A stretch of DNA of 64,000 nt from the NCBI RefSeq assembly GCF_056746865.1, contig NZ_CM163382.1, one strand, 5' to 3'. Each line of letters starts with the position of its first letter. Position 1 is the first letter of the stretch. Made by a program: the position numbers and the translations under genes. Under the pieces are notes generated by a model. That model saw nothing but the letters and a program-made list of their open reading frames with translations. It was not told the origin of the DNA and ran no database searches. Shown here one piece after another: positions 33,102-58,204 of the stretch.

Positions 33102-35360
33102 TTACTCTTCGCTATCACCGCTGCTGGCACGGCGAGGAGAGTCGATCTCAACACGATCGATACGCTGCAAACCGCGCATCAACGTACCGCGGCGTCCACG
33201 TTCGCCAGTGACTTTCTGTAACTCTTCCGGGCGCAGTTTAATTTTGCGTTTCCCAACATGAATGGTCAGCGTGCTTTGCGGCGGCAGAACGTACAATTGC
33301 GCCAGACCATCTTCTCCACGCGCGGCTTCTGCCGATGGAATGTTGATAATCTTGTTGCCTTTGCCCTTCGACAGCTGCGGCAGATCACTTACCGGGAACA
33401 TCAACATACGGCCTGCCTGAGTGATTGCCAGCAGCATATCGGAAGCATCTTCAATCACCACCGGCGGCATAACATGGGCATTTTCCGGTAAGGTGATCAA
33501 AGCCTTACCTGCACGGTTACGCGCCACCAGATCGTTAAAGGTGCAGACGAAACCGTAACCCGCATCGGAAGCCATCAGCAGTTTCTGATCGTCGCTTTCC
33601 ATCAGCATATGGTCAACGGTCGCCCCAGGCGGCAACGTTAATTTGCCGGTGAGCGGCTCGCCCTGACCACGCGCCGACGGCAGCGTAATCGGGTCAATGG
33701 CATAGCTACGACCGGTGGAATCAACAAACACTACCGGTTGGTTGCTCTTACCTTTCACCGCCGCTTTGAAGCTATCACCCGCTTTATAATTCAGGCCCGG
33801 CGCGTCGATATCATGGCCTTTAGCGCTGCGTACCCAGCCCATCTGCGACAGCACAATGGTGACAGGTTCAGACGGCAGCATGTCGTGCTCGCTCATCGCT
33901 TTCGCTTCTTCGCGTTCCTGCAACGGCGAACGACGATCGTCACCGTAGGCTTGCGCGTCTGCCTGCAGTTCTTTCTTCAGCAGGTTATTCATTTTACGCT
34001 CGGAAGCCAAAATGCCCTGCAACTGGTCGCGCTCTTTTTCCAGTTCACTCTGCTCACCGCGAATCTTCATCTCTTCCAGTTTGGCAAGATGACGCAGTTT
34101 CAGTTCGAGGATCGCTTCCGCCTGGGTTTCCGTAAGGCCAAACCGCGACATCAGCGCCGGTTTCGGTTCATCTTCATTACGAATGATCTCAATCACTTCG
34201 TCGATATTGAGAAACGCCACCAGCAAACCTTCGAGGATATGCAGGCGCTTGAGGACTTTCTCCAGACGATAGTTCAGTCGGCGGCGCACGGTATCGCGGC
34301 GGAACACCAGCCATTCGGAGAGGATTTCCAGCAGGTTTTTCACCGCCGGACGACCATCCAGACCGATCATATTAAGGTTAATACGATAGCTCTTTTCCAG
34401 ATCGGTGGTAGCGAAGAGGTGGTTCATCACCTGATCCATATCCACGCGGTTGGAACGCGGCACAATCACCAGGCGGGTCGGGTTCTCGTGGTCAGATTCA
34501 TCGCGCAGATCGTCAACCATCGGCAGCTTTTTGTTGCGCATTTGCGCAGCAATTTGCTCCAGTACGCGCGCACCTGAAACCTGATGCGGCAATGCGCTGA
34601 TAACCACCGCGCCATCTTCTTTCTTCCACACCGCGCGCATACGCACTGAACCACGTCCGTTCTCGTAGATTTTACGGATCTCGGCGCGCGAAGTGATAAT
34701 TTCCGCTTCAGTCGGATAATCCGGCCCCTGCACGATATCCAGCAGCTGATCGAGCGTGGTTTTCGGCTGGTCGATTAATGCGATTGCCGCCTGAGCCACT
34801 TCACGCAGGTTATGCGGTGGAATATCGGTCGCCATGCCGACGGCAATACCGGTGGTGCCGTTAAGCAAAATGTTTGGCAGACGGGCAGGTAGCATTTTCG
34901 GCTCCTGCAAAGTGCCGTCGAAGTTTGGCACCCAGTCAGCCGTCCCCTGCCCCAGCTCGCTCAATAGCAGCTCGGAATATTTCGACAACCGGGATTCGGT
35001 GTAACGCATTGCCGCGAACGATTTCGGATCGTCCGGCGCGCCCCAGTTCCCCTGACCATCAACCAGCGGATAACGGTAAGAGAACGGTTGCGCCATCAGG
35101 ACCATCGCTTCATAACAGGCGATATCGCCGTGCGGATGGTATTTACCCAGTACGTCACCGACGGTACGGGCCGATTTTTTAAATTTGGCGCTGGCATTCA
35201 GGCCCAGTTCAGACATCGCATACACAATGCGGCGCTGAACAGGTTTCAGACCATCACCAATAAACGGCAACGCACGGTCCATGATCACGTACATGGAGTA
35301 GTTTAAGTAGGCGTTTTCCGTAAATTCATGTAGCGCAAGGCGCTCTGCCATATCGCTCAT
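33102..35360 (-). CDS. parC: DNA topoisomerase IV subunit A
   Basis: 752 aa. Confidence 0.95.
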
Positions 35361-35497
35361 TAATTCTGATTCCTCAACTTATTCGCCAGCCTTCAAAGGG
35401 GCAATATTGCCGGAGATACTACATTATCTGCCGCGTCGAGTCACAGGAGATCAGCGTGAATAGCGCCGCCGGACGTGCTCCGACGGCGATAAAGGCA

Positions 35498-37105
35498 TCA
35501 ATGTGCCTTGATATACAACTCTTTGCTGTAGACATAATCCTGGGGATTATGCAGCGGAAAACCGCCAACGTAGGGTTTAAGCAGTTTGATTAACGGCTGA
35601 TAGTAGATAGGAATCAGCGGTGCCTGTTGGTTGATGATCACTTCTGCCTGCTGATACAACGCATTACGCTTTGTCGCATCAGTGATCTGCGTGGCCTGGT
35701 TTAGTAAGGCGTCATACTGCGCATTTTTCCAGTGACCGACGTTTTCTTCACTATCGCTTTTGAGCGTGTTCAGGAAGCTGGAAGCATCATTGTACGTCGC
35801 ATCCCACGACTGCCGAGACAGCATGAAATCACCGGCTCGTCGGGCATCAAGATAGGTTTTCCACTCCATTGTGCGCAGCGTCACCTGTGCACCCAGCCAT
35901 TTTTTCCATTCGGAAGACAACGCTATCGCGGTCTTTTCATGCAGATCGTACTTGTTGTAGAACAGCTCAAAGCGTAGCGGATGAGAGGCGTCGTATCCCG
36001 CCTGTTTCAGCAAGGCTTTTGCCATCGCGACGCGCTCACTCATTGGCTTTTGCAGTTCATCGAACGTCGTCGCGCTAAAGCCTTTTACCTCTGGCGGCGT
36101 CAGCGTGGTTGCGGGCGTTCTCAACCCCAGTACCTTTTGCGCAATAAGCTGTCGATCAACCGTAAGATATAGCGCCCGACGCACTCGCACATCGTTAAAT
36201 GGCGGTTTCTCAAGGTTGAAGTTGTAATATTCGCTGTTCAGACGCGGAATAATTCGTAGCTCGCCAGGCAGTGATTTTTCAATGGCGGGAATTTGCTGCG
36301 CCGGAACCCAGGTGAGATCGACCTCTCCCGCGCGATAGCGGTTATAGCCGGTGACCGAATTATCTAGCGCCAGATACTCAACCTGTTGCAATACTGTATG
36401 TTGCGCATCGCGGTACTTTGGATTTTTGCGTGCAGTAATCTTTTCGTTAACTACCCACTGATCAAGCACAAAGGCACCGTTGTAAACCATGTTCTCTGGC
36501 TTACTCCAGCTATCGCCATGTTTAGCGATGACATGATGAGGAACCGGGAACAGCGTCGGCCAGGCGAGCATCGTCGTGAACCAAGGAACCGGCTGCTCAA
36601 GCGTAACTTCAAGAGTACGATCATCCGTCGCTTTGACACCCAGCGATGTAACATCTGCTTTACCCGCAACAATAGCTGCGGCATTGTTAATGTGCGCCTG
36701 TGCCAGATAGCCAGCAAAAGGGCTTGCCGTTTTCGGGTCAACCGCGCGCTGCCAGCCGAGGACAAAATCCTCTGCCGTCAGAGGCTGACCGTCGGACCAC
36801 TGCAAACCGCTACGCAGATGGAAAATATAGCGCTTGCCGCCGTCCAGTATCTCCCAGCGTTCAGCCTGAGCGGGCTGCACCTGGCCTTCACCGTCCATCC
36901 ATACCAGACCTTCAAACAGATCCAGCACAATCTGCGCGGCAGTATTCTCCTCCACCTTTTGCGGGTCGAGCGTACCTGGGTCGCTATGATTGTTGTAACG
37001 AAAGACTTGTTGCGGGGCGAGCGGTGTGTTGGCGGGAACGTCAGCAGCGTAGAGAGGAGCCGCACTTACCAGGCTGACCAGCCATAATAAATTTCGCGTA
37101 TACAT
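35498..37105 (-). CDS. ygiS: Periplasmic solute-binding protein (oligopeptide ABC family 5)
   Basis: 535 aa from ATG at 37105 (MYTRNLLWLVSL...) with signal peptide. Confidence 0.85.
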   Translation of the reverse strand: MYTRNLLWLVSLVSAAPLYAADVPANTPLAPQQVFRYNNHSDPGTLDPQKVEENTAAQIVLDLFEGLVWMDGEGQVQPAQAERWEILDGGKRYIFHLRSGLQWSDGQPLTAEDFVLGWQRAVDPKTASPFAGYLAQAHINNAAAIVAGKADVTSLGVKATDDRTLEVTLEQPVPWFTTMLAWPTLFPVPHHVIAKHGDSWSKPENMVYNGAFVLDQWVVNEKITARKNPKYRDAQHTVLQQVEYLALDNSVTGYNRYRAGEVDLTWVPAQQIPAIEKSLPGELRIIPRLNSEYYNFNLEKPPFNDVRVRRALYLTVDRQLIAQKVLGLRTPATTLTPPEVKGFSATTFDELQKPMSERVAMAKALLKQAGYDASHPLRFELFYNKYDLHEKTAIALSSEWKKWLGAQVTLRTMEWKTYLDARRAGDFMLSRQSWDATYNDASSFLNTLKSDSEENVGHWKNAQYDALLNQATQITDATKRNALYQQAEVIINQQAPLIPIYYQPLIKLLKPYVGGFPLHNPQDYVYSKELYIKAH

Positions 37106-37237
37106 GGTATTCCTTACCGGAGAAATTATAAGCCCAACAACAATACGCCTGTGGCATTGTTCGCTCAAACTTATCGCGAGTGATTTGGCTCACACTCCGG
37201 TAAAGAAAAAAGCGAGTTGCCCCCGCTTTTCCATTAA

Positions 37238-37633
37238 TTAACGGATTTCATTCAATAGTTCTGGATGCTTATCCAGAACACGTAAAAGTTTGATTGTGGA
37301 AGGATGAGGTTGGGCATTGCCTTTTTCGTAACGCGAAAACGCATTTACACCTCCCCCAAAAATTTCGCTTGCCTCTTTTTGGGTAAGAGAGAGCTTTTTT
37401 CGAACCTTCACTATAAATTCAGGTGCCACTGTTTCGGCATTCACCGAAGCCCGAAATGCCTTTACTTGCGCCATGAAAGCATCTGACTCTTCTTTATTCA
37501 TGATGCTCTCTTCGCAATGGACACAATATAAACCGTGGATACCTTTCAATACTGTTTTTCGTCCACGGAAGGTGTATGGAATATCTTTAATGCCAGAAAC
37601 CATTTCTCCCTGGTGGCAAACCGGACATTTCAT
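37238..37633 (-). CDS. mqsA: Antitoxin MqsA (zinc-binding N-domain, HTH-XRE C-domain)
   Basis: 131 aa; CPVCHQ...CVHCEE zinc site. Confidence 0.95.
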   Translation of the reverse strand: MKCPVCHQGEMVSGIKDIPYTFRGRKTVLKGIHGLYCVHCEESIMNKEESDAFMAQVKAFRASVNAETVAPEFIVKVRKKLSLTQKEASEIFGGGVNAFSRYEKGNAQPHPSTIKLLRVLDKHPELLNEIR

Positions 37634-37634
37634 A

Positions 37635-37931
37635 TTACTTCTCCTTAAACGAGACGATCAGTACGTCATGAATTACCGTAATTTTAAGATAAACCTGGCC
37701 TGTAACAAGCCTGGGTCTGTAAACATCCTGCCAGATAGTATGATCAGAGTAGGTGGTCATGCTTTTATAAAAGTCGCTCTCTGATAATCCAATGATAACA
37801 TTACACATACCATCAAAATCCAAACCTAACTCATCTGCATTTAACAGGGCACTACGTGTTGTACGAACTTGCCCGGCATTGACAAGTTTTTTAACCTGAC
37901 TCAAACGTGTATGTGGTGTGCGTTTTTCCAT
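37635..37931 (-). CDS. mqsR: Toxin MqsR (RelE-like mRNA interferase)
   Basis: 98 aa; 1-nt gap to mqsA. Confidence 0.95.
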   Translation of the reverse strand: MEKRTPHTRLSQVKKLVNAGQVRTTRSALLNADELGLDFDGMCNVIIGLSESDFYKSMTTYSDHTIWQDVYRPRLVTGQVYLKITVIHDVLIVSFKEK

Positions 37932-37961
37932 AACCCCCGCCTCCCTGTTACTTTAGTTATA

Positions 37962-38004
37962 ACCTAAAAGGTTAATTACAGCAATGAAAAAGCACCTAAA
38001 AGGT
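37962..38004. promoter_or_regulatory. Two MqsA operator palindromes (acct-aaaa-ggt) in the mqsRA promoter
   Basis: acctaaaaggt at 37962-37972 and 37994-38004, immediately upstream of mqsR. Confidence 0.7.
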
Positions 38005-38135
38005 TAGTTAGATGTACGGAGATAGTGACCACACAAAACGTATTCTTTAAGGAAAGTGATTGACCATATAAGAAAGTGGCGCATTAGTAGCGCCAGTTTG
38101 AAGCAGGAATTTATAAGGGAAGCTGGAGTCAGGCA

Positions 38136-38618
38136 TCACGCCAACGGCACATAAACATCCGTTTCCAGTCGCTGCTCTGTCACCCCTTCGGCAAGATTGG
38201 TGTAGTGAAACAGAATCGGTGCTTTACGCATTTTCTCGCCGCTTGCAGGCAGCCAGTGGCGAATGATGCCCCATACCGTGTGTGAAATATCGTCCAGCTC
38301 GCCAACGTGGCGGGCCACGGCATAACGTCCACCGGTAAGTTCACCATTGCTCACACCATAACGATTATCGGGAATCGGTTCGCTAACGCTGCCGCAGATA
38401 TCAAAGCGAAACGCTTCCGGTGCGGTGGTGGCAGGGTCGTCCCAGGCGACGCCAAAAGTCTGGCTTTGGTTAACAGGAGAAAGCCCCGTCTCTTTACGCC
38501 ACATGATAAATTTCGCCACGCTGTAGTTGAGCAATTCAGGGCTACAGCGGTGCGGCAACATCGCCACAGGTATTGATGGGAAATCGATAATGTTTACATC
38601 CAGTGTCAGGTTTGTCAT
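38136..38618 (-). CDS. ygiV: GyrI-like/AraC effector-domain transcriptional regulator
   Basis: 160 aa. Confidence 0.85.
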   Translation of the reverse strand: MTNLTLDVNIIDFPSIPVAMLPHRCSPELLNYSVAKFIMWRKETGLSPVNQSQTFGVAWDDPATTAPEAFRFDICGSVSEPIPDNRYGVSNGELTGGRYAVARHVGELDDISHTVWGIIRHWLPASGEKMRKAPILFHYTNLAEGVTEQRLETDVYVPLA

Positions 38619-38670
38619 TTTGCCTCCCTGCGAAATTATTCCCGGGAACGCGTCCCGGGAGCGGTAACAA

Positions 38671-39063
38671 TTACGGATTTACTTTGCGGATCTGTTTGAC
38701 GTCAATTTCAACAGAATTCCAGTCTTTATCGACTTCACCCTGAATCTCAACCGTATCTTTCGGCGTCACCGTCACGCCGTTCCAGCGTTTGTGGTCGATA
38801 TCAACATTGATAGTACCGCTGGCATCTTTGAACACGTAGAGATCGTCAGAGATGCGTTCAACGATATTGCCGCGCAGGGTTACCCAGGTGTCGTCACGCA
38901 GGGATTTTGCGCTTTCTACAGTCGTTACGCTGCCGTTCGGCCCCTGGAATCCTCCGGCCTGACTTTGCGTTGCCGATGGGCCAGAAAAACCGCCCTGCTC
39001 TGCTGCCATCACCGGTGCGCTGCACAGGGCCATTACTGCGATTACTGCTGCGAATTTTTTCAT
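38671..39063 (-). CDS. ygiW: Periplasmic BOF (OB-fold) family stress protein
   Basis: 130 aa from ATG at 39063 (MKKFAAVIAV...). Confidence 0.85.
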   Translation of the reverse strand: MKKFAAVIAVMALCSAPVMAAEQGGFSGPSATQSQAGGFQGPNGSVTTVESAKSLRDDTWVTLRGNIVERISDDLYVFKDASGTINVDIDHKRWNGVTVTPKDTVEIQGEVDKDWNSVEIDVKQIRKVNP

Positions 39064-39214
39064 GTTTATTACTCCCTTTAATGTCTGTTTCCGAGCATTT
39101 AACAAGATAGTCCTTAACAACTTCTTAAGGGAAAAAAATAAAATTTAGTGCTGTACAGAGCGCGTTACAACACGGTTTACTGGCAGCAAATACGGTTATC
39201 GCAGGGATGAAAAA

Positions 39215-39874
39215 ATGCGAATTTTACTGATAGAAGATGACATGCTGATTGGCGACGGCATCAAAACGGGCCTTAGTAAAATGGGTTTTAGCGTCGACTG
39301 GTTTACACAAGGTCGTCAGGGAAAAGAGGCGCTTTATAGCGCACCTTATGATGCGGTGATCCTGGATTTAACCTTACCAGGCATGGATGGTCGCGATATT
39401 TTGCGCGAATGGCGAGAAAAAGGTCAGCGTGAGCCGGTACTGATCCTGACCGCGCGCGATGCGCTGGCGGAACGTGTAGAAGGGCTGCGTCTGGGAGCTG
39501 ACGATTATCTGTGTAAACCTTTTGCGTTGATAGAAGTCGCCGCCAGGCTGGAAGCTCTGATGCGCCGAACCAACGGCCAGGCCAGCAACGAGCTGCGCCA
39601 CGGTAACGTCATGCTCGACCCCGGCAAACGTATCGCCACGCTGGCTGGCGAACCCTTAACACTGAAACCAAAAGAATTTGCCCTGCTGGAATTACTGATG
39701 CGTAACGCTGGTCGGGTACTGCCGCGCAAACTGATTGAAGAGAAACTGTATACCTGGGACGAAGAGGTCACCAGTAATGCCGTTGAAGTGCATGTGCATC
39801 ATCTGCGACGCAAACTCGGTAGTGATTTTATTCGTACCGTGCATGGTATTGGTTACACATTAGGTGAGAAATGA
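39215..39874 (+). CDS. qseB: Two-component response regulator (OmpR family)
   Basis: 219 aa. Confidence 0.95.
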
Positions 39875-41598: not shown

Positions 41599-41925
41599 AT
41601 ATCAGTACGCTCATAAAAATCCATTTATAATTATCAACATGACACGTTGATACTTTCATCTTTTACTTATTCAAAGCCATATTTTCAATCCCCAAAAAAA
41701 CCGAACCAAACGTGTAAATTATTCCGGTGCGAGTAAGAATTGTAAGAATTATGAGGAATGGCTATCAGTATTGTCATTTTCAGAAAATATTTATCCTGCA
41801 TCGGTGAGTCAGAGTAAGATCAGACTTTTGCTAAATTCGCAAAAGACTTTGCACATTTTGCTAATTTCACCGTACCGCTCTGTGACGTACTATAGTCGGC
41901 AAACGTCTCACCTTGAGGTTAAAAA

Positions 41926-50977: not shown

Positions 50978-51461
50978 TACTGTTCAATATTGCCCCGTTT
51001 ACCGGGGCAATTTATTATACTTCGCAAATCATCACCCCCATCTATATATAATCAATCACATCCATCACTTTTATTTAACATTAATTCCTAATTTAATATT
51101 AAATCGTCATATGTAAGCGATACTGTAATTAAATTAATCAATAAAATCACTTGGTAACCTATTGTTTTATGAGTTTATTTATATCCAACACCGCATCAAA
51201 AATAGATTTAATAATTAAAAAACAATGTCGCTGGGATCACACTACACAATATTGAATATTGTTATTGATATATTGCCCACCTAGTATCGACCAAAAGAAA
51301 ATATTTGTTACAGAGAAATACAAAAATTCTAAAACCAGTAAAAAATATTCATAACGATTATTATTAATACATTTTAATTCACAAAACAAATTTATTAGCA
51401 CCACCTCAACAGTCGATATTCATCATTATTATATATTTGCGTTATATAAGGAGATATATCC

Positions 51462-53258
51462 ATGTTTGATAAATATAGAAAAACTCTGGTAGCCGGAGCT
51501 GTGGCGATAACTCTGGGTTTGTCAGCACCGGGGGTGATGGCAGCAGGTTTTAAACCCGCACCACCTGCCGGGCAACTGGGTGCAGTCATTGTCGATCCCT
51601 ACGGCAATGCACCACTGACCGCTTTGGTTGACTTAGATAGCCATGTCATTTCTGATGTCAAAGTTACCGTCCATGGGAAGGGCGAAAAAGGCGTAGAAAT
51701 CAGCTATCCCGTGGGTCAGGAATCACTAAAAACTTATGATGGTGTACCGATTTTTGGTCTTTATCAGAAATTTGCTAACAAAGTGACCGTTGAGTGGAAA
51801 GAAAACGGCAAGGTCATGAAAGATGATTATGTGGTGCACACTTCGGCCATCGTCAATAATTACATGGATAACCGCTCTATCTCCGATTTACAACAGACCA
51901 AAGTTATTAAAGTCGCACCGGGTTTTGAAGATCGCCTCTATCTGGTTAATACCCACACCTTTACCGCCCAAGGTTCCGATCTCCACTGGCATGGTGAGAA
52001 AGATAAAAATGCCGGTATCCTTGATGCGGGTCCGGCAACCGGCGCACTACCTTTTGATATCGCGCCCTTTACTTTCATTGTCGATACCGAAGGTGAATAC
52101 CGCTGGTGGCTGGATCAAGACACTTTCTACGATGGTCGTGACCGCGATATCAACAAGCGTGGTTATCTGATGGGTATCCGCGAAACACCACGCGGCACCT
52201 TTACCGCTGTACAAGGTCAGCACTGGTACGAGTTCGACATGATGGGGCAGGTGCTCGAAGATCACAAACTACCGCGCGGATTTGCTGACGCCACTCATGA
52301 GTCCATTGAGACGCCTAATGGCACAGTATTGTTGCGCGTAGGTAAGAGCAATTACCGTCGCGATGACGGCGTACACGTCACCACCATTCGTGACCATATC
52401 CTCGAAGTCGATAAATCTGGTCGCGTTGTCGATGTATGGGATCTGACCAAGATCCTCGATCCGAAACGCGATGCACTGCTCGGCGCGCTGGATGCAGGTG
52501 CAGTTTGCGTTAACGTTGACCTTGCCCATGCAGGACAACAGGCAAAACTGGAACCGGATACACCGTTCGGCGACGCGCTGGGTGTAGGGCCAGGTCGTAA
52601 CTGGGCGCACGTTAACTCAATCGCCTATGACGCAAAAGATGACTCAATCATCCTCTCCTCTCGCCACCAGGGTGTTGTGAAAATTGGTCGTGATAAGCAA
52701 GTGAAATGGATCCTTGCGCCCTCTAAAGGTTGGGAAAAACCGCTGGCCAGCAAGCTGCTGAAACCGGTTGATGCTAACGGTAAGCCAATTACCTGTAACG
52801 AAAATGGCCTGTGCGAAAACTCAGACTTCGACTTTACCTACACCCAGCATACCGCCTGGATTTCCAGCAAAGGAACGCTCACCATTTTTGATAATGGCGA
52901 TGGGCGTCATCTGGAACAACCTGCCTTACCAACCATGAAATACTCCCGCTTTGTGGAATATAAGATTGATGAGAAGAAAGGCACCGTTCAGCAAGTGTGG
53001 GAATACGGTAAAGAACGTGGCTACGATTTCTATAGCCCGATTACCTCCATCATTGAATATCAAGCCGACCGTAACACCATGTTTGGCTTCGGTGGTTCTA
53101 TTCATTTGTTCGATGTCGGGCAGCCAACCGTCGGTAAGTTGAACGAAATCGATTACAAAACCAAAGAAGTGAAAGTGGAAATCGACGTGCTGTCAGATAA
53201 ACCCAATCAGACTCACTATCGTGCACTGTTAGTCCGTCCACAACAGATGTTCAAATAA
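51462..53258 (+). CDS. assT: Periplasmic arylsulfate sulfotransferase (ASST)
   Basis: 598 aa with Sec signal peptide; matches remembered AssT of uropathogenic E. coli. Confidence 0.85.
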   Translation: MFDKYRKTLVAGAVAITLGLSAPGVMAAGFKPAPPAGQLGAVIVDPYGNAPLTALVDLDSHVISDVKVTVHGKGEKGVEISYPVGQESLKTYDGVPIFGLYQKFANKVTVEWKENGKVMKDDYVVHTSAIVNNYMDNRSISDLQQTKVIKVAPGFEDRLYLVNTHTFTAQGSDLHWHGEKDKNAGILDAGPATGALPFDIAPFTFIVDTEGEYRWWLDQDTFYDGRDRDINKRGYLMGIRETPRGTFTAVQGQHWYEFDMMGQVLEDHKLPRGFADATHESIETPNGTVLLRVGKSNYRRDDGVHVTTIRDHILEVDKSGRVVDVWDLTKILDPKRDALLGALDAGAVCVNVDLAHAGQQAKLEPDTPFGDALGVGPGRNWAHVNSIAYDAKDDSIILSSRHQGVVKIGRDKQVKWILAPSKGWEKPLASKLLKPVDANGKPITCNENGLCENSDFDFTYTQHTAWISSKGTLTIFDNGDGRHLEQPALPTMKYSRFVEYKIDEKKGTVQQVWEYGKERGYDFYSPITSIIEYQADRNTMFGFGGSIHLFDVGQPTVGKLNEIDYKTKEVKVEIDVLSDKPNQTHYRALLVRPQQMFK

Positions 53259-53275
53259 TTAAGAAGGGAATAAAA

Positions 53276-53944
53276 ATGTCGAAATTAGGGATCTCATCAC
53301 TATTTAAAACCATACTGCTTACCGCAGCTTTGGCTGTTTCATTTACCGCTTCTGCATTTACCGAAGGCACGGATTACATGGTTCTGGAAAAACCTATTCC
53401 GAATGCCGACAAAACGCTGATTAAGGTATTTAGCTACGCCTGCCCGTTCTGTTACAAGTACGACAAAGCGGTTACCGGTCCGGTATCGGAAAAAGTGAAA
53501 GATATCGTTGCTTTTACTCCATTCCATCTGGAAACAAAAGGTGAATACGGCAAACAAGCAAGCGAAGTCTTTGCGGTCTTGATCAATAAAGATAAAGCAG
53601 CAGGTATTTCATTATTTGATGCTAACTCTCAGTTTAAGAAAGCCAAGTTTGCTTATTACGCGGCTTATCATGACAAAAAAGAACGCTGGTCTGATGGTAA
53701 AGATCCGGCTGCCTTTATCAAAACCGGACTGGACGCCGCAGGTATGAGTCAGGCCGATTTTGAAGCCGCGCTGAAAGAGCCTGCAGTTCAGGAAACGCTG
53801 GAAAAATGGAAAGCCTCTTATGAAGTTGCAAAAATCCAGGGCGTTCCGGCGTATGTCGTCAATGGTAAATACCTGATCTACACCAAGAGTATTAAATCTA
53901 TTGACTCAATGGCAGACCTTATCCGCGAGTTAGCAAGCAAATAA
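53276..53944 (+). CDS. dsbL: Periplasmic thiol:disulfide oxidoreductase, DsbA paralog (CPFC active site)
   Basis: 222 aa; signal peptide; CPFC motif read directly. Confidence 0.85.
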
Positions 53945-53958
53945 CAGGGAAACAGGCT

Positions 53959-54630
53959 ATGGGTATTAAGGGAATGTGGAAAGACCTTCGCACTTCACCG
54001 GTGGACACGCTGGTAAGATGGCAAGAACAACGTTTTTTGTGGTTGTTAATGGCCATTGCGATGGGCGCGTTAATTATCCTGGCGCACTCTTTCTTCCAGA
54101 TCTATCTCTACATGGCACCCTGTGAGCAATGTGTATACATTCGCTACGCCATGTTTGTGATGGTTATTGGAGGATTGGTTGCAGCGATCAACCCAAAGAA
54201 CATCATCCTAAAGCTAATTGGCTGCGTGATGGCATTTTACGGCAGCATTTTGGGACTGAAGTTTTCGCTCAAACTGAACGATATCCACCATGCAGTACAT
54301 AATCCGGATCCCGATTCACTGTTTGGCGTACAGGGTTGCTCTACCGATCCAACTTTTCCCTTTAACCTGCCGCTGGCACAGTGGGCACCAAATTGGTTCA
54401 AGCCTACCGGGGATTGTGGCTATGACGCACCAATCGTTCCTGATGGCGTCACACTGAGCAGCACGCAACAGTGGTTTGTGGAAATGTATCAGCAATCTGA
54501 AGGCTGGTATCTGCTACCACCATGGCATTTTATGAATATGGCTCAGGCTTGTATGCTGGCTTTTGGTATGTGTCTGGTGCTGCTGGTCATTATGAGTGGC
54601 GCATGGGCGCTTAAAATCATCAGAGGCTAA
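53959..54630 (+). CDS. dsbI: Membrane disulfide-bond oxidoreductase, DsbB paralog
   Basis: 223 aa; periplasmic-loop Cys pairs CEQC and C...C; multiple TM helices. Confidence 0.85.
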
Positions 54631-54638
54631 CTCAGCAA

Positions 54639-54675
54639 CACCCGAAGCCAGTCGTTCTGGCTTCGGGTTCTTTTA
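54639..54675. terminator. Bidirectional terminator between dsbI and ygiD
   Basis: acccgaagccagtcgttctggcttcgggt hairpin then tcttttatt. Confidence 0.7.
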
Positions 54676-57896: not shown

Positions 57897-58196
57897 ATGA
57901 TTGACCCGAAAAAAATTGAGCAAATCGCTCGCCAGGTTCACGAATCAATGCCTAAAGGAATCAGGGAGTTCGGGGAAGATGTGGAGAAAAAAATCCGCCA
58001 AACCCTACAAGCGCAACTGACGCGTCTCGATCTGGTGAGCCGCGAAGAATTCGACGTACAGACGCAAGTCCTGTTACGGACTCGTGAGAAACTGGCATTA
58101 CTGGAGCAGCGCATCAGTGAACTGGAAGCGCGCAATAATTCGGTAGCAGATCTTCAATCTCCTCCGGCTATCCCGCCTATTGATAAAGCAGAATAA
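57897..58196 (+). CDS. ubiK: Ubiquinone biosynthesis accessory factor (BMFP/YqiC coiled-coil family)
   Basis: About 99 aa from ATG at 57897 ([13 protein letters not shown]...). Confidence 0.85.
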
Positions 58197-58204
58197 AGCA
58201 ACAC

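Follow-up and report, generated by a model that had tools for sequence, protein, structure and literature searches.

A complete K-12-type mqsR-mqsA toxin-antitoxin operon with two MqsA operator palindromes, carried as an accessory cassette in E. coli

Toxin-antitoxin (TA) modules are part of the accessory genome of E. coli, and horizontal transfer of the chromosomal ones has been discussed (PMC7167474 and its references). A pair of small open reading frames (ORFs) preceded by two short palindromes, found in a 64,000-nucleotide stretch of DNA that is referred to here as the window, raised the question of whether this locus is a complete and functional TA operon, whether the palindromes are its operators and what the module does for the cell. 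The initial annotation had proposed a two-ORF, toxin-first module. A six-frame ORF listing bore this out, as both ORFs were intact, lay on the minus strand inside 37238-38010 and were separated by 1 nt, with the toxin gene mqsR (37931 to 37635) preceding the antitoxin gene mqsA (37633 to 37238). The genes and their ribosome-binding sites were located as follows.

37635..37931, minus strand: mqsR (ygiU, b3022), 98 aa, ATG start; toxin, GC[U/A]-specific endoribonuclease; annotated as mqsR in MG1655.
37238..37633, minus strand: mqsA (ygiT, b3021), 131 aa, ATG start; antitoxin and repressor with an N-terminal zinc site (Cys4) and a C-terminal HTH-XRE domain.
37940..37946, minus strand: AGGGAGG, the mqsR Shine-Dalgarno sequence, at a distance of 8 nt from the start codon (ATG), as read from the sequence.
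37641..37646, minus strand: Shine-Dalgarno sequence of mqsA, AAGGAG, within the last codons of mqsR.

Alignment to K-12 mqsRA had been suggested as a check, and DNA comparison detected zero differences from MG1655 over positions 35455-39721, an interval covering the module and its flanks. Window positions are converted to NC_000913.3 positions by addition of 3130613. The RefSeq annotation of MG1655 gives the order ygiS - mqsA - mqsR - ygiV - ygiW - qseB, and in the window ygiS likewise lies downstream and ygiV upstream of mqsRA. Within the locus there was no difference from K-12 MG1655 in proteins, DNA of the cassette that carries the module (described below), flanks, palindromes, gene order or neighbours. 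The proposal of a complete chromosomal TA system was upheld by the two intact ORFs and by the identity of locus and flanks to MG1655. Overall, these results indicated that the locus is almost certainly the mqsR-mqsA (ygiU-ygiT, b3022-b3021) type II TA operon of the E. coli K-12 type, complete and in the form of the reference allele. The mqsRA module of this strain is very probably functional, a conclusion drawn from its identity to the tested K-12 allele. It is a textbook mqsRA locus, already known and ordinary.

The encoded proteins were compared with structures and family profiles. MqsR was identical at 98 of 98 residues to the K-12 protein in PDB 3HI2_B, and it matched the Pfam family PF15723 (MqsR_toxin) over the whole profile with a score of 120.1 bits versus a cut-off of 26.2. 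The residues implicated in activity in PMC4803016 (K56, Q68, Y81 and K96) were all present. MqsA was identical at 131 of 131 residues to the K-12 protein in PDB entries 2KZ8, 3GN5 and 3O9X, the last of which is a crystallised MqsA-operator complex, and it matched Pfam PF15731 (MqsA_antitoxin; 188 bits, cut-off of 30) and NCBIfam TIGR03830 and TIGR03831 (MqsA family and YgiT zinc finger). Also present in MqsA were N97 and R101, which we take, from Brown 2011, to be DNA-contact residues. The zinc cysteines C3, C6, C37 and C40 and the DNA contacts F22, R23, K58 and R61, as listed in PMC2791442 and PMC4803016, were likewise all retained. The description of the second gene product as a 131-aa zinc-binding HTH antitoxin was thus accurate on every count, and it agrees with the zinc site, HTH-mediated DNA binding and fully structured nature established for K-12 MqsA (PMC2791442). 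In K-12, induction of mqsR caused growth arrest that was rescued by mqsA (PMC2814082), and toxicity and neutralisation of this MqsR/MqsA pair were also demonstrated in PMC2791442.

The toxin had been described as RelE-like, a term which holds for the fold but not for the mechanism. The crystal structure of MqsR revealed a RelE/YoeB-like fold at 11-13% sequence identity (PMC2791442), and a Pfam search detected no match of MqsR to the RelE family at the sequence level. Cleavage by MqsR occurs at GC[A/U] and does not require translation (PMC2814082), unlike the ribosome-dependent A-site cleavage of RelE proper. The module therefore resembles the RelE/YoeB/HigB interferases and the higBA-type 'reverse' operons in its RelE-like alpha/beta fold, toxin-first order and HTH antitoxin, and the C-terminal domain of MqsA had a weak match to HigA-2 (E = 5e-4). 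In contrast to the RelE/YoeB/HigB toxins, MqsR is ribosome independent and specific for GC[U/A] (PMC2814082), and relative to these toxins and the higBA systems, MqsA is distinguished by being fully structured, binding zinc and contacting DNA through its C-terminal domain (PMC2791442). A further difference from these systems is that MqsR acts as a derepressor and not as a co-repressor, displacing MqsA from the operator, according to Brown 2013 as summarised in PMC4803016 and PMC7167474. Counts of GCU sites (1 in mqsR, 3 in mqsA and 43 in the 1,608 nt of ygiS) were consistent with the published contrast in GCU content between MqsR-resistant and MqsR-sensitive transcripts.

Two palindromes had been claimed to lie just upstream of the toxin gene and to match the known autoregulatory sites of MqsA. 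Inspection of this region located an 11-mer, ACCTAAAAGGT (ACCTTTTAGGT on the gene strand), at 37962-37972 and again at 37994-38004, and there was no other copy in the 64 kb of the window. The gene-strand sequence upstream of mqsR reads ...CTAACTAACCTTTTAGGTGCTTTTTCATTGCTGTAATTAACCTTTTAGGTTATAACTAAAGTAACAGGGAGGCGGGGGTTATG. The two sites and their contexts were as follows.

37960..37974, no strand assigned: promoter-proximal operator for MqsA (palindrome 1); its 15 bp, TAACCTTTTAGGTTA, form a perfect palindrome around the core ACCT-N3-AGGT at 37962-37972.
37994..38004, no strand assigned: distal operator for MqsA (palindrome 2), ACCTTTTAGGT, found in the context TAACCTTTTAGGTGC.

Relative to the ATG of mqsR, the palindromes occupy -41 to -31 and -73 to -63, so that they are 32 bp apart, and their spacers are identical. 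The initial annotation divided the motif as acct-aaaa-ggt, a detail that requires correction: read as a palindrome, the motif is ACCT-AAA-AGGT, with a spacer of N3 and not N4. Soo and Wood placed palindrome 1 at 3166595-3166609 and palindrome 2 at 3166629-3166639 of U00096.2 and tested both by EMSA (PMC4894380). A constant of +1978, converting U00096.2 to U00096.3, brought the two published palindromes onto 37960-37974 and 37994-38004. As one constant shift matched both sites, the palindromes of the window are the published, EMSA-tested operators, and the claimed match to the autoregulatory sites was confirmed by coordinates.

Diverged relatives of the module were sought by a distant blastn search of the cassette against plasmids. 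MqsR/MqsA-family modules with about 66-73% DNA identity were detected in Rahnella, Rouxiella, Pectobacterium, Herbaspirillum and other genera, and four of these homologues, including those of Rahnella aceris pRAHAQ02 and Rouxiella badensis, were retrieved for comparison. All four resembled the E. coli module in having a 98-aa toxin gene first, an antitoxin of 131-133 aa and a gap of 1-2 nt, and the plasmid antitoxins shared the CxxC...CxxC and HTH features of MqsA. They differed in location, as they were found near anti-restriction, DUF905 and DUF932 genes and not between ygiS and ygiV. Upstream of the toxin gene, the sites were TAACCTCAAAGGTTA and TAACCTTTGAGGTTA in Rahnella and TAACCTTTTAGGTTG and TAACCTTTTAGGTTA in Rouxiella, so that both of these homologues had two TAACCT-N3-AGGTTA palindromes at a distance of 31-34 bp, the proximal one being directly contiguous with a TATAAT sequence. 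This layout was retained at a DNA identity of about 69%. The arms of the homologue palindromes were conserved while the 3-nt spacer varied (CAA, TTG or TTT), as would be expected if the palindromes bind a protein but not if they are chance matches. In the Pectobacterium homologue, no palindrome was present within 130 nt upstream, where another ORF lies directly upstream of the module. Carriage of the present allele itself on a plasmid was considered and rejected, as the only near-identical 'plasmid' matches were records of 4.9 Mb and 354 kb that contained the whole chromosomal parC-ygiS-mqsRA-ygiV-qseBC block; these records are probably mislabelled or misassembled chromosome.

The arrangement of promoters and terminators was examined next to the operators. 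In K-12, the antitoxin represses a promoter located upstream of mqsR (PMC2814082), and this promoter, pRA, is weak and MqsA repressed (PMC6918082). Two constitutive promoters within mqsR, pA1 and pA2, drive mqsA outside this autoregulation and are jointly stronger than pRA (PMC6918082). The candidate elements in the window were as follows.

37956..37984, minus strand: inferred operon promoter pRA, with a -35 of TTGCTG (37984 to 37979), a 17-nt spacer in which the greater part of palindrome 1 lies and a -10 of TATAAC (37961 to 37956).
37681..37708, minus strand: sigma-70-like promoter inside mqsR, TTGTTA-16 nt-TAAAAT, a candidate for pA1; the only promoter-like match of the scan in 37100-38200.
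37792..37797, minus strand: -10-like hexamer TATCAT, a candidate for pA2, with an implied start at about 37784.
37206..37232, minus strand: terminator-like hairpin and U-run just past the mqsA stop codon; RNA folding gave an 11-bp stem and -17.5 kcal/mol in a 51-nt context (z = -3.3).
38077..38095, minus strand: terminator-like hairpin within the cassette, a scan match of TGGCGCTACTAATGCGCCA followed by CTTTCTTATA, located between ygiV, whose stop codon is 41 nt upstream, and the mqsRA promoter.

The -35 and -10 of pRA were assigned by eye with the support of the homologues, whose TATAAT occupies the same place and hence supports TATAAC as the probable -10 in E. coli; TTGCTG would be a poor -35. 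pRA was not among the matches of the consensus promoter scan, a result that fits its very low, near-background activity reported in PMC6918082. Starts placed 8 nt downstream of each internal -10 fell at about 37784 and about 37673, which are 111 nt apart. Because this equals the 111-nt spacing of the pA1 and pA2 start sites in PMC6918082, the TATCAT and TTGTTA/TAAAAT sites were taken to be the probable pA2 and pA1, respectively. The hairpin at 38077..38095 may insulate mqsRA from read-through out of ygiW-ygiV. No known RNA family was detected in 36900-38400 by a search against Rfam at E<=1.

The operation of the module has been established for the identical sequence in K-12. Transcription of mqsR and mqsA together starts from a weak sigma-70 promoter that lies upstream of mqsR, and an MqsA dimer, acting through its C-terminal HTH domains, binds the two ACCT-N3-AGGT palindromes and represses pRA. 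As palindrome 1 appears to fill the pRA spacer and to overlap the -10, bound MqsA would be expected to exclude RNA polymerase; palindrome 2 would lie just upstream of the -35. As also established in K-12, MqsR is held by the N-terminal zinc domain of MqsA in a non-toxic MqsR-MqsA2-MqsR complex, and competition between MqsR and DNA for MqsA relieves repression. Additional mqsA mRNA from the constitutive promoters inside mqsR keeps the antitoxin in excess despite the toxin-first order, and free MqsR cuts RNA at GCU (and GCA) with no need of the ribosome, leading to arrest of translation and growth.

The position of the module between ygiS and ygiV was as the initial annotation had given it, but the module proved to be an accessory cassette that the majority of E. 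coli genomes lack. The unit was defined as follows.

37207..38133, no strand assigned: whole mqsRA cassette, 927 bp, found entire or not at all between ygiS and the stop codon of ygiV.

Among 5,426 complete E. coli genomes, 5,414 matched the ygiS end of the query, and 2,282 (42%) matched at least 80% of the query and were counted as cassette carriers; about 58% of the complete genomes were without the cassette and had retained ygiS and ygiV. A junction alignment with JJ2434 and H10, which lack mqsRA, demonstrated that ygiS adjoins ygiV in these strains and that a 5-bp sequence, TTCCC, replaces 37207-38133. The right boundary of the cassette is 2 nt past the ygiV stop codon. No flanking direct repeats were seen at the cassette junctions in this alignment, and a distant blastn search of the cassette against a phage collection gave no match and hence no sign of a prophage origin. 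The cassette had a GC content of 41.1%, below that of ygiS and ygiV (52-53%) and of the window as a whole (50.8%), and this low value points to horizontal acquisition. A terminator-like hairpin was present at each end. From its composition and layout, the cassette appears to be a self-contained, horizontally acquired unit with its own promoter, operators and terminator. A more far-reaching proposal, that it is a minimal mobile unit moving by an unrecognised route and that its presence may rewire transcription between ygiW-ygiV and ygiS, is given little weight here; even if true, the mobile-cassette reading would be incremental, as horizontal transfer of TA modules is already discussed in the literature.

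The identification of the operators and of an active module was weighed against two alternatives. The palindromes could have been chance matches or sites of some protein other than MqsA. The pattern ACCTNNNAGGT is by itself not rare, as 2 copies were present in the window versus 0.42 expected and at least 2 copies occurred in 8 of 100 window shuffles. Furthermore, a search for ACCT-N2-4-AGGT elsewhere in the 64-kb window detected one extra match only, a site at 41910-41919 with an N2 spacer, which overlies the mdaB ribosome-binding site and looks like a chance-level occurrence. Clustering is a different matter, as an analytic estimate gave about 3e-4 expected pairs of ACCTNNNAGGT within about 50 bp per window, and the observed pair, with the same spacers, is directly upstream of mqsR. 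Together with the coincidence with the EMSA-tested sites (PMC4894380), the retention of both arms with changed spacers in the diverged plasmid homologues and the existence of the 3O9X complex, this leaves a chance origin or another binding protein with a very small probability, and the palindromes are read as MqsA operators. It was also conceivable that the module is decayed or silent in this strain, with intact ORFs that are unexpressed or non-toxic. Decay is frequent among chromosomal TA modules, the operon promoter is weak and was missed by the consensus scan, and one O121 genome had an IS1 within this stretch, indicating disruption of the locus in one lineage at least. Against this, 35455-39721 is equal to MG1655, where expression, toxicity and autoregulation of the module have been shown (PMC2814082, PMC6918082), and the key residues of both proteins are in place; a decayed or silent module is therefore considered highly improbable.

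The benefit of mqsRA to the cell is disputed, with stress and biofilm regulation, phage defence and selfish accessory persistence having been proposed. If mqsRA were a physiological regulator and not a neutral or selfish cassette, Lon-dependent loss of MqsA under stress would release rpoS, csgD and cspD from repression, and a reduction of ygiS mRNA by MqsR would raise tolerance to deoxycholate. Reports of these effects are summarised in PMC4894380 and PMC4803016, and ygiS, immediately downstream, would be an easy target for MqsR given its density of GCU sites in comparison to mqsR. [quoted passage not shown] The absence of the cassette from the majority of genomes that keep ygiS and ygiV argues against a core regulatory role, such that phenotypes ascribed to mqsRA cannot be core E. 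coli physiology, and its low GC content, as a mark of horizontal acquisition, also weighs against the regulator reading, which we regard as unlikely. A role in defence against phage was suggested by MqsRAC of E. coli C496_10, a tripartite MqsR/MqsA/MqsC system which strongly inhibits phage T2 and takes its name from the same families of toxin and antitoxin (PMC10783111). TA modules on accessory DNA are often defensive, and anti-restriction genes adjoin the plasmid homologues. MqsRAC differs from the present module in having a third gene, for a SecB-type chaperone, and the K-12 host used for its study was described as being without the tripartite system (PMC10783111). No SecB-like mqsC is present here, as the mqsA hairpin is followed by the cassette boundary at 37207 and the start of ygiS at about 37105, with no ORF between. 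A search with PADLOC defence models gave no match for MqsR and only weak, HTH-level matches for MqsA (RmrA, E = 2e-5), and an empty-vector MG1655 control, which carries chromosomal mqsRA, was killed by T2 (PMC10783111). An anti-phage function of this two-gene module is consequently judged quite improbable. The most defensible position is that mqsRA is an accessory, self-maintaining TA cassette without a demonstrated core function; a conditional role in regulation or defence may exist.

For the strain from which the window derives, identity to the reference allele of a type II TA module that ranks among the best characterised means that what was learned in K-12 about structure, operator binding, the internal promoters and specificity for GCU applies directly. 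Beyond correct annotation, the finding is of small importance. A full comparison ruled out the window being MG1655 itself. Outside the locus, an assT-dsbL-dsbI-like block of 3.7 kb is inserted between ygiC and ygiD, the K-12 ygiL-yqiGHI region is missing from the window and there is no IS5 at the left end. A further difference was observed in parC, two genes downstream of the module, which carries S80I (AGC to ATC at 35122), a classic quinolone-resistance change. This substitution shows that the window is from a quinolone-exposed lineage, and in clinical terms it says more than the TA module does.

The mqsRA cassette (37207-38133) was found to be a presence/absence block of 927 bp with a GC content of 41%. 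In a set of 5426 complete genomes of E. coli, it was carried by just 2282. In genomes lacking mqsRA, the cassette was replaced by TTCCC at the same junction, which lies 2 nt past the ygiV stop codon. Comparison of the ends of the cassette with the cassette-less junctions detected no flanking repeats. The cassette also contains a potential transcription signal:

38077-38095, minus strand: terminator-like hairpin with the sequence TGGCGCTACTAATGCGCCA and, after it, a T-rich tail, located between the ygiV stop codon and the mqsRA operators

This hairpin was missing from cassette-less strains, and hence read-through from ygiV to ygiS may differ between cassette-bearing and cassette-less loci.

The ygiS-mqsRA-ygiV region of an E. 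coli O121 genome (NZ_CP119441.1, 4078276-4080093) was matched in two pieces. These pieces were ~780 bp wider apart than expected and an IS1A transposase was annotated under the match, indicating that IS1 inserted naturally into, or next to, the mqsRA locus of this genome.

Plasmid-borne homologues of mqsRA included the following two:

1483-2300 of L007 (Rahnella aceris pRAHAQ02): mqsRA homologue
1494-2300 of L008 (a Rouxiella badensis plasmid): mqsRA homologue

Both homologues retained two TAACCT-N3-AGGTTA palindromes, 31 to 34 bp apart, with a TATAAT sequence fused to the proximal palindrome. Their neighbours were anti-restriction, DUF905, DUF932 and DUF5983 genes, a gene content characteristic of plasmid leading regions. 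Two further "plasmid" records, both from PLSDB (NZ_MG591698.1 and NZ_CP141089.1), contained the chromosomal region of mqsRA. One of these records is 4.9 Mb in size and the other, of 354 kb, bears parC-ygiS-mqsRA-ygiV-ygiW-qseBC. Each probably represents chromosomal DNA that was mislabelled or misassembled.

A palindrome with a shorter spacer was present elsewhere in the window:

41910-41919: palindrome ACCTTGAGGT with a 2-nt spacer, overlapping the mdaB Shine-Dalgarno sequence

This palindrome lies 7 nt 5' of the mdaB ATG (41926). Its frequency was at chance level, and nothing tied it to MqsA.

Identity to MG1655 was 99.6 to 99.9% across most of the window and 95 to 98% at the right end. Approximately 6.6 kb of MG1655 (ygiL-yqiG(IS2)-yqiH-yqiI) was missing at ~58127-58200, and the IS5 element of MG1655 was absent from the left end (1-15). 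These two differences indicated that the source of the window is a K-12-like strain, yet not K-12. Two other features were distinguished by comparison with MG1655:

50978-54672: block of 3.7 kb without an MG1655 counterpart, between ygiC and ygiD
33102-35360, minus strand: parC, with S80I at 35122

As the block encodes an arylsulfotransferase (598 aa) and DsbA-like (222 aa) and DsbB-like (223 aa) proteins, it looks like an assT-dsbL-dsbI locus. Codon 80 of parC was ATC (Ile) rather than the AGC (Ser) of MG1655, and this was the only difference between ParC and the K-12 protein; S80I is the classic fluoroquinolone-resistance substitution in topoisomerase IV.
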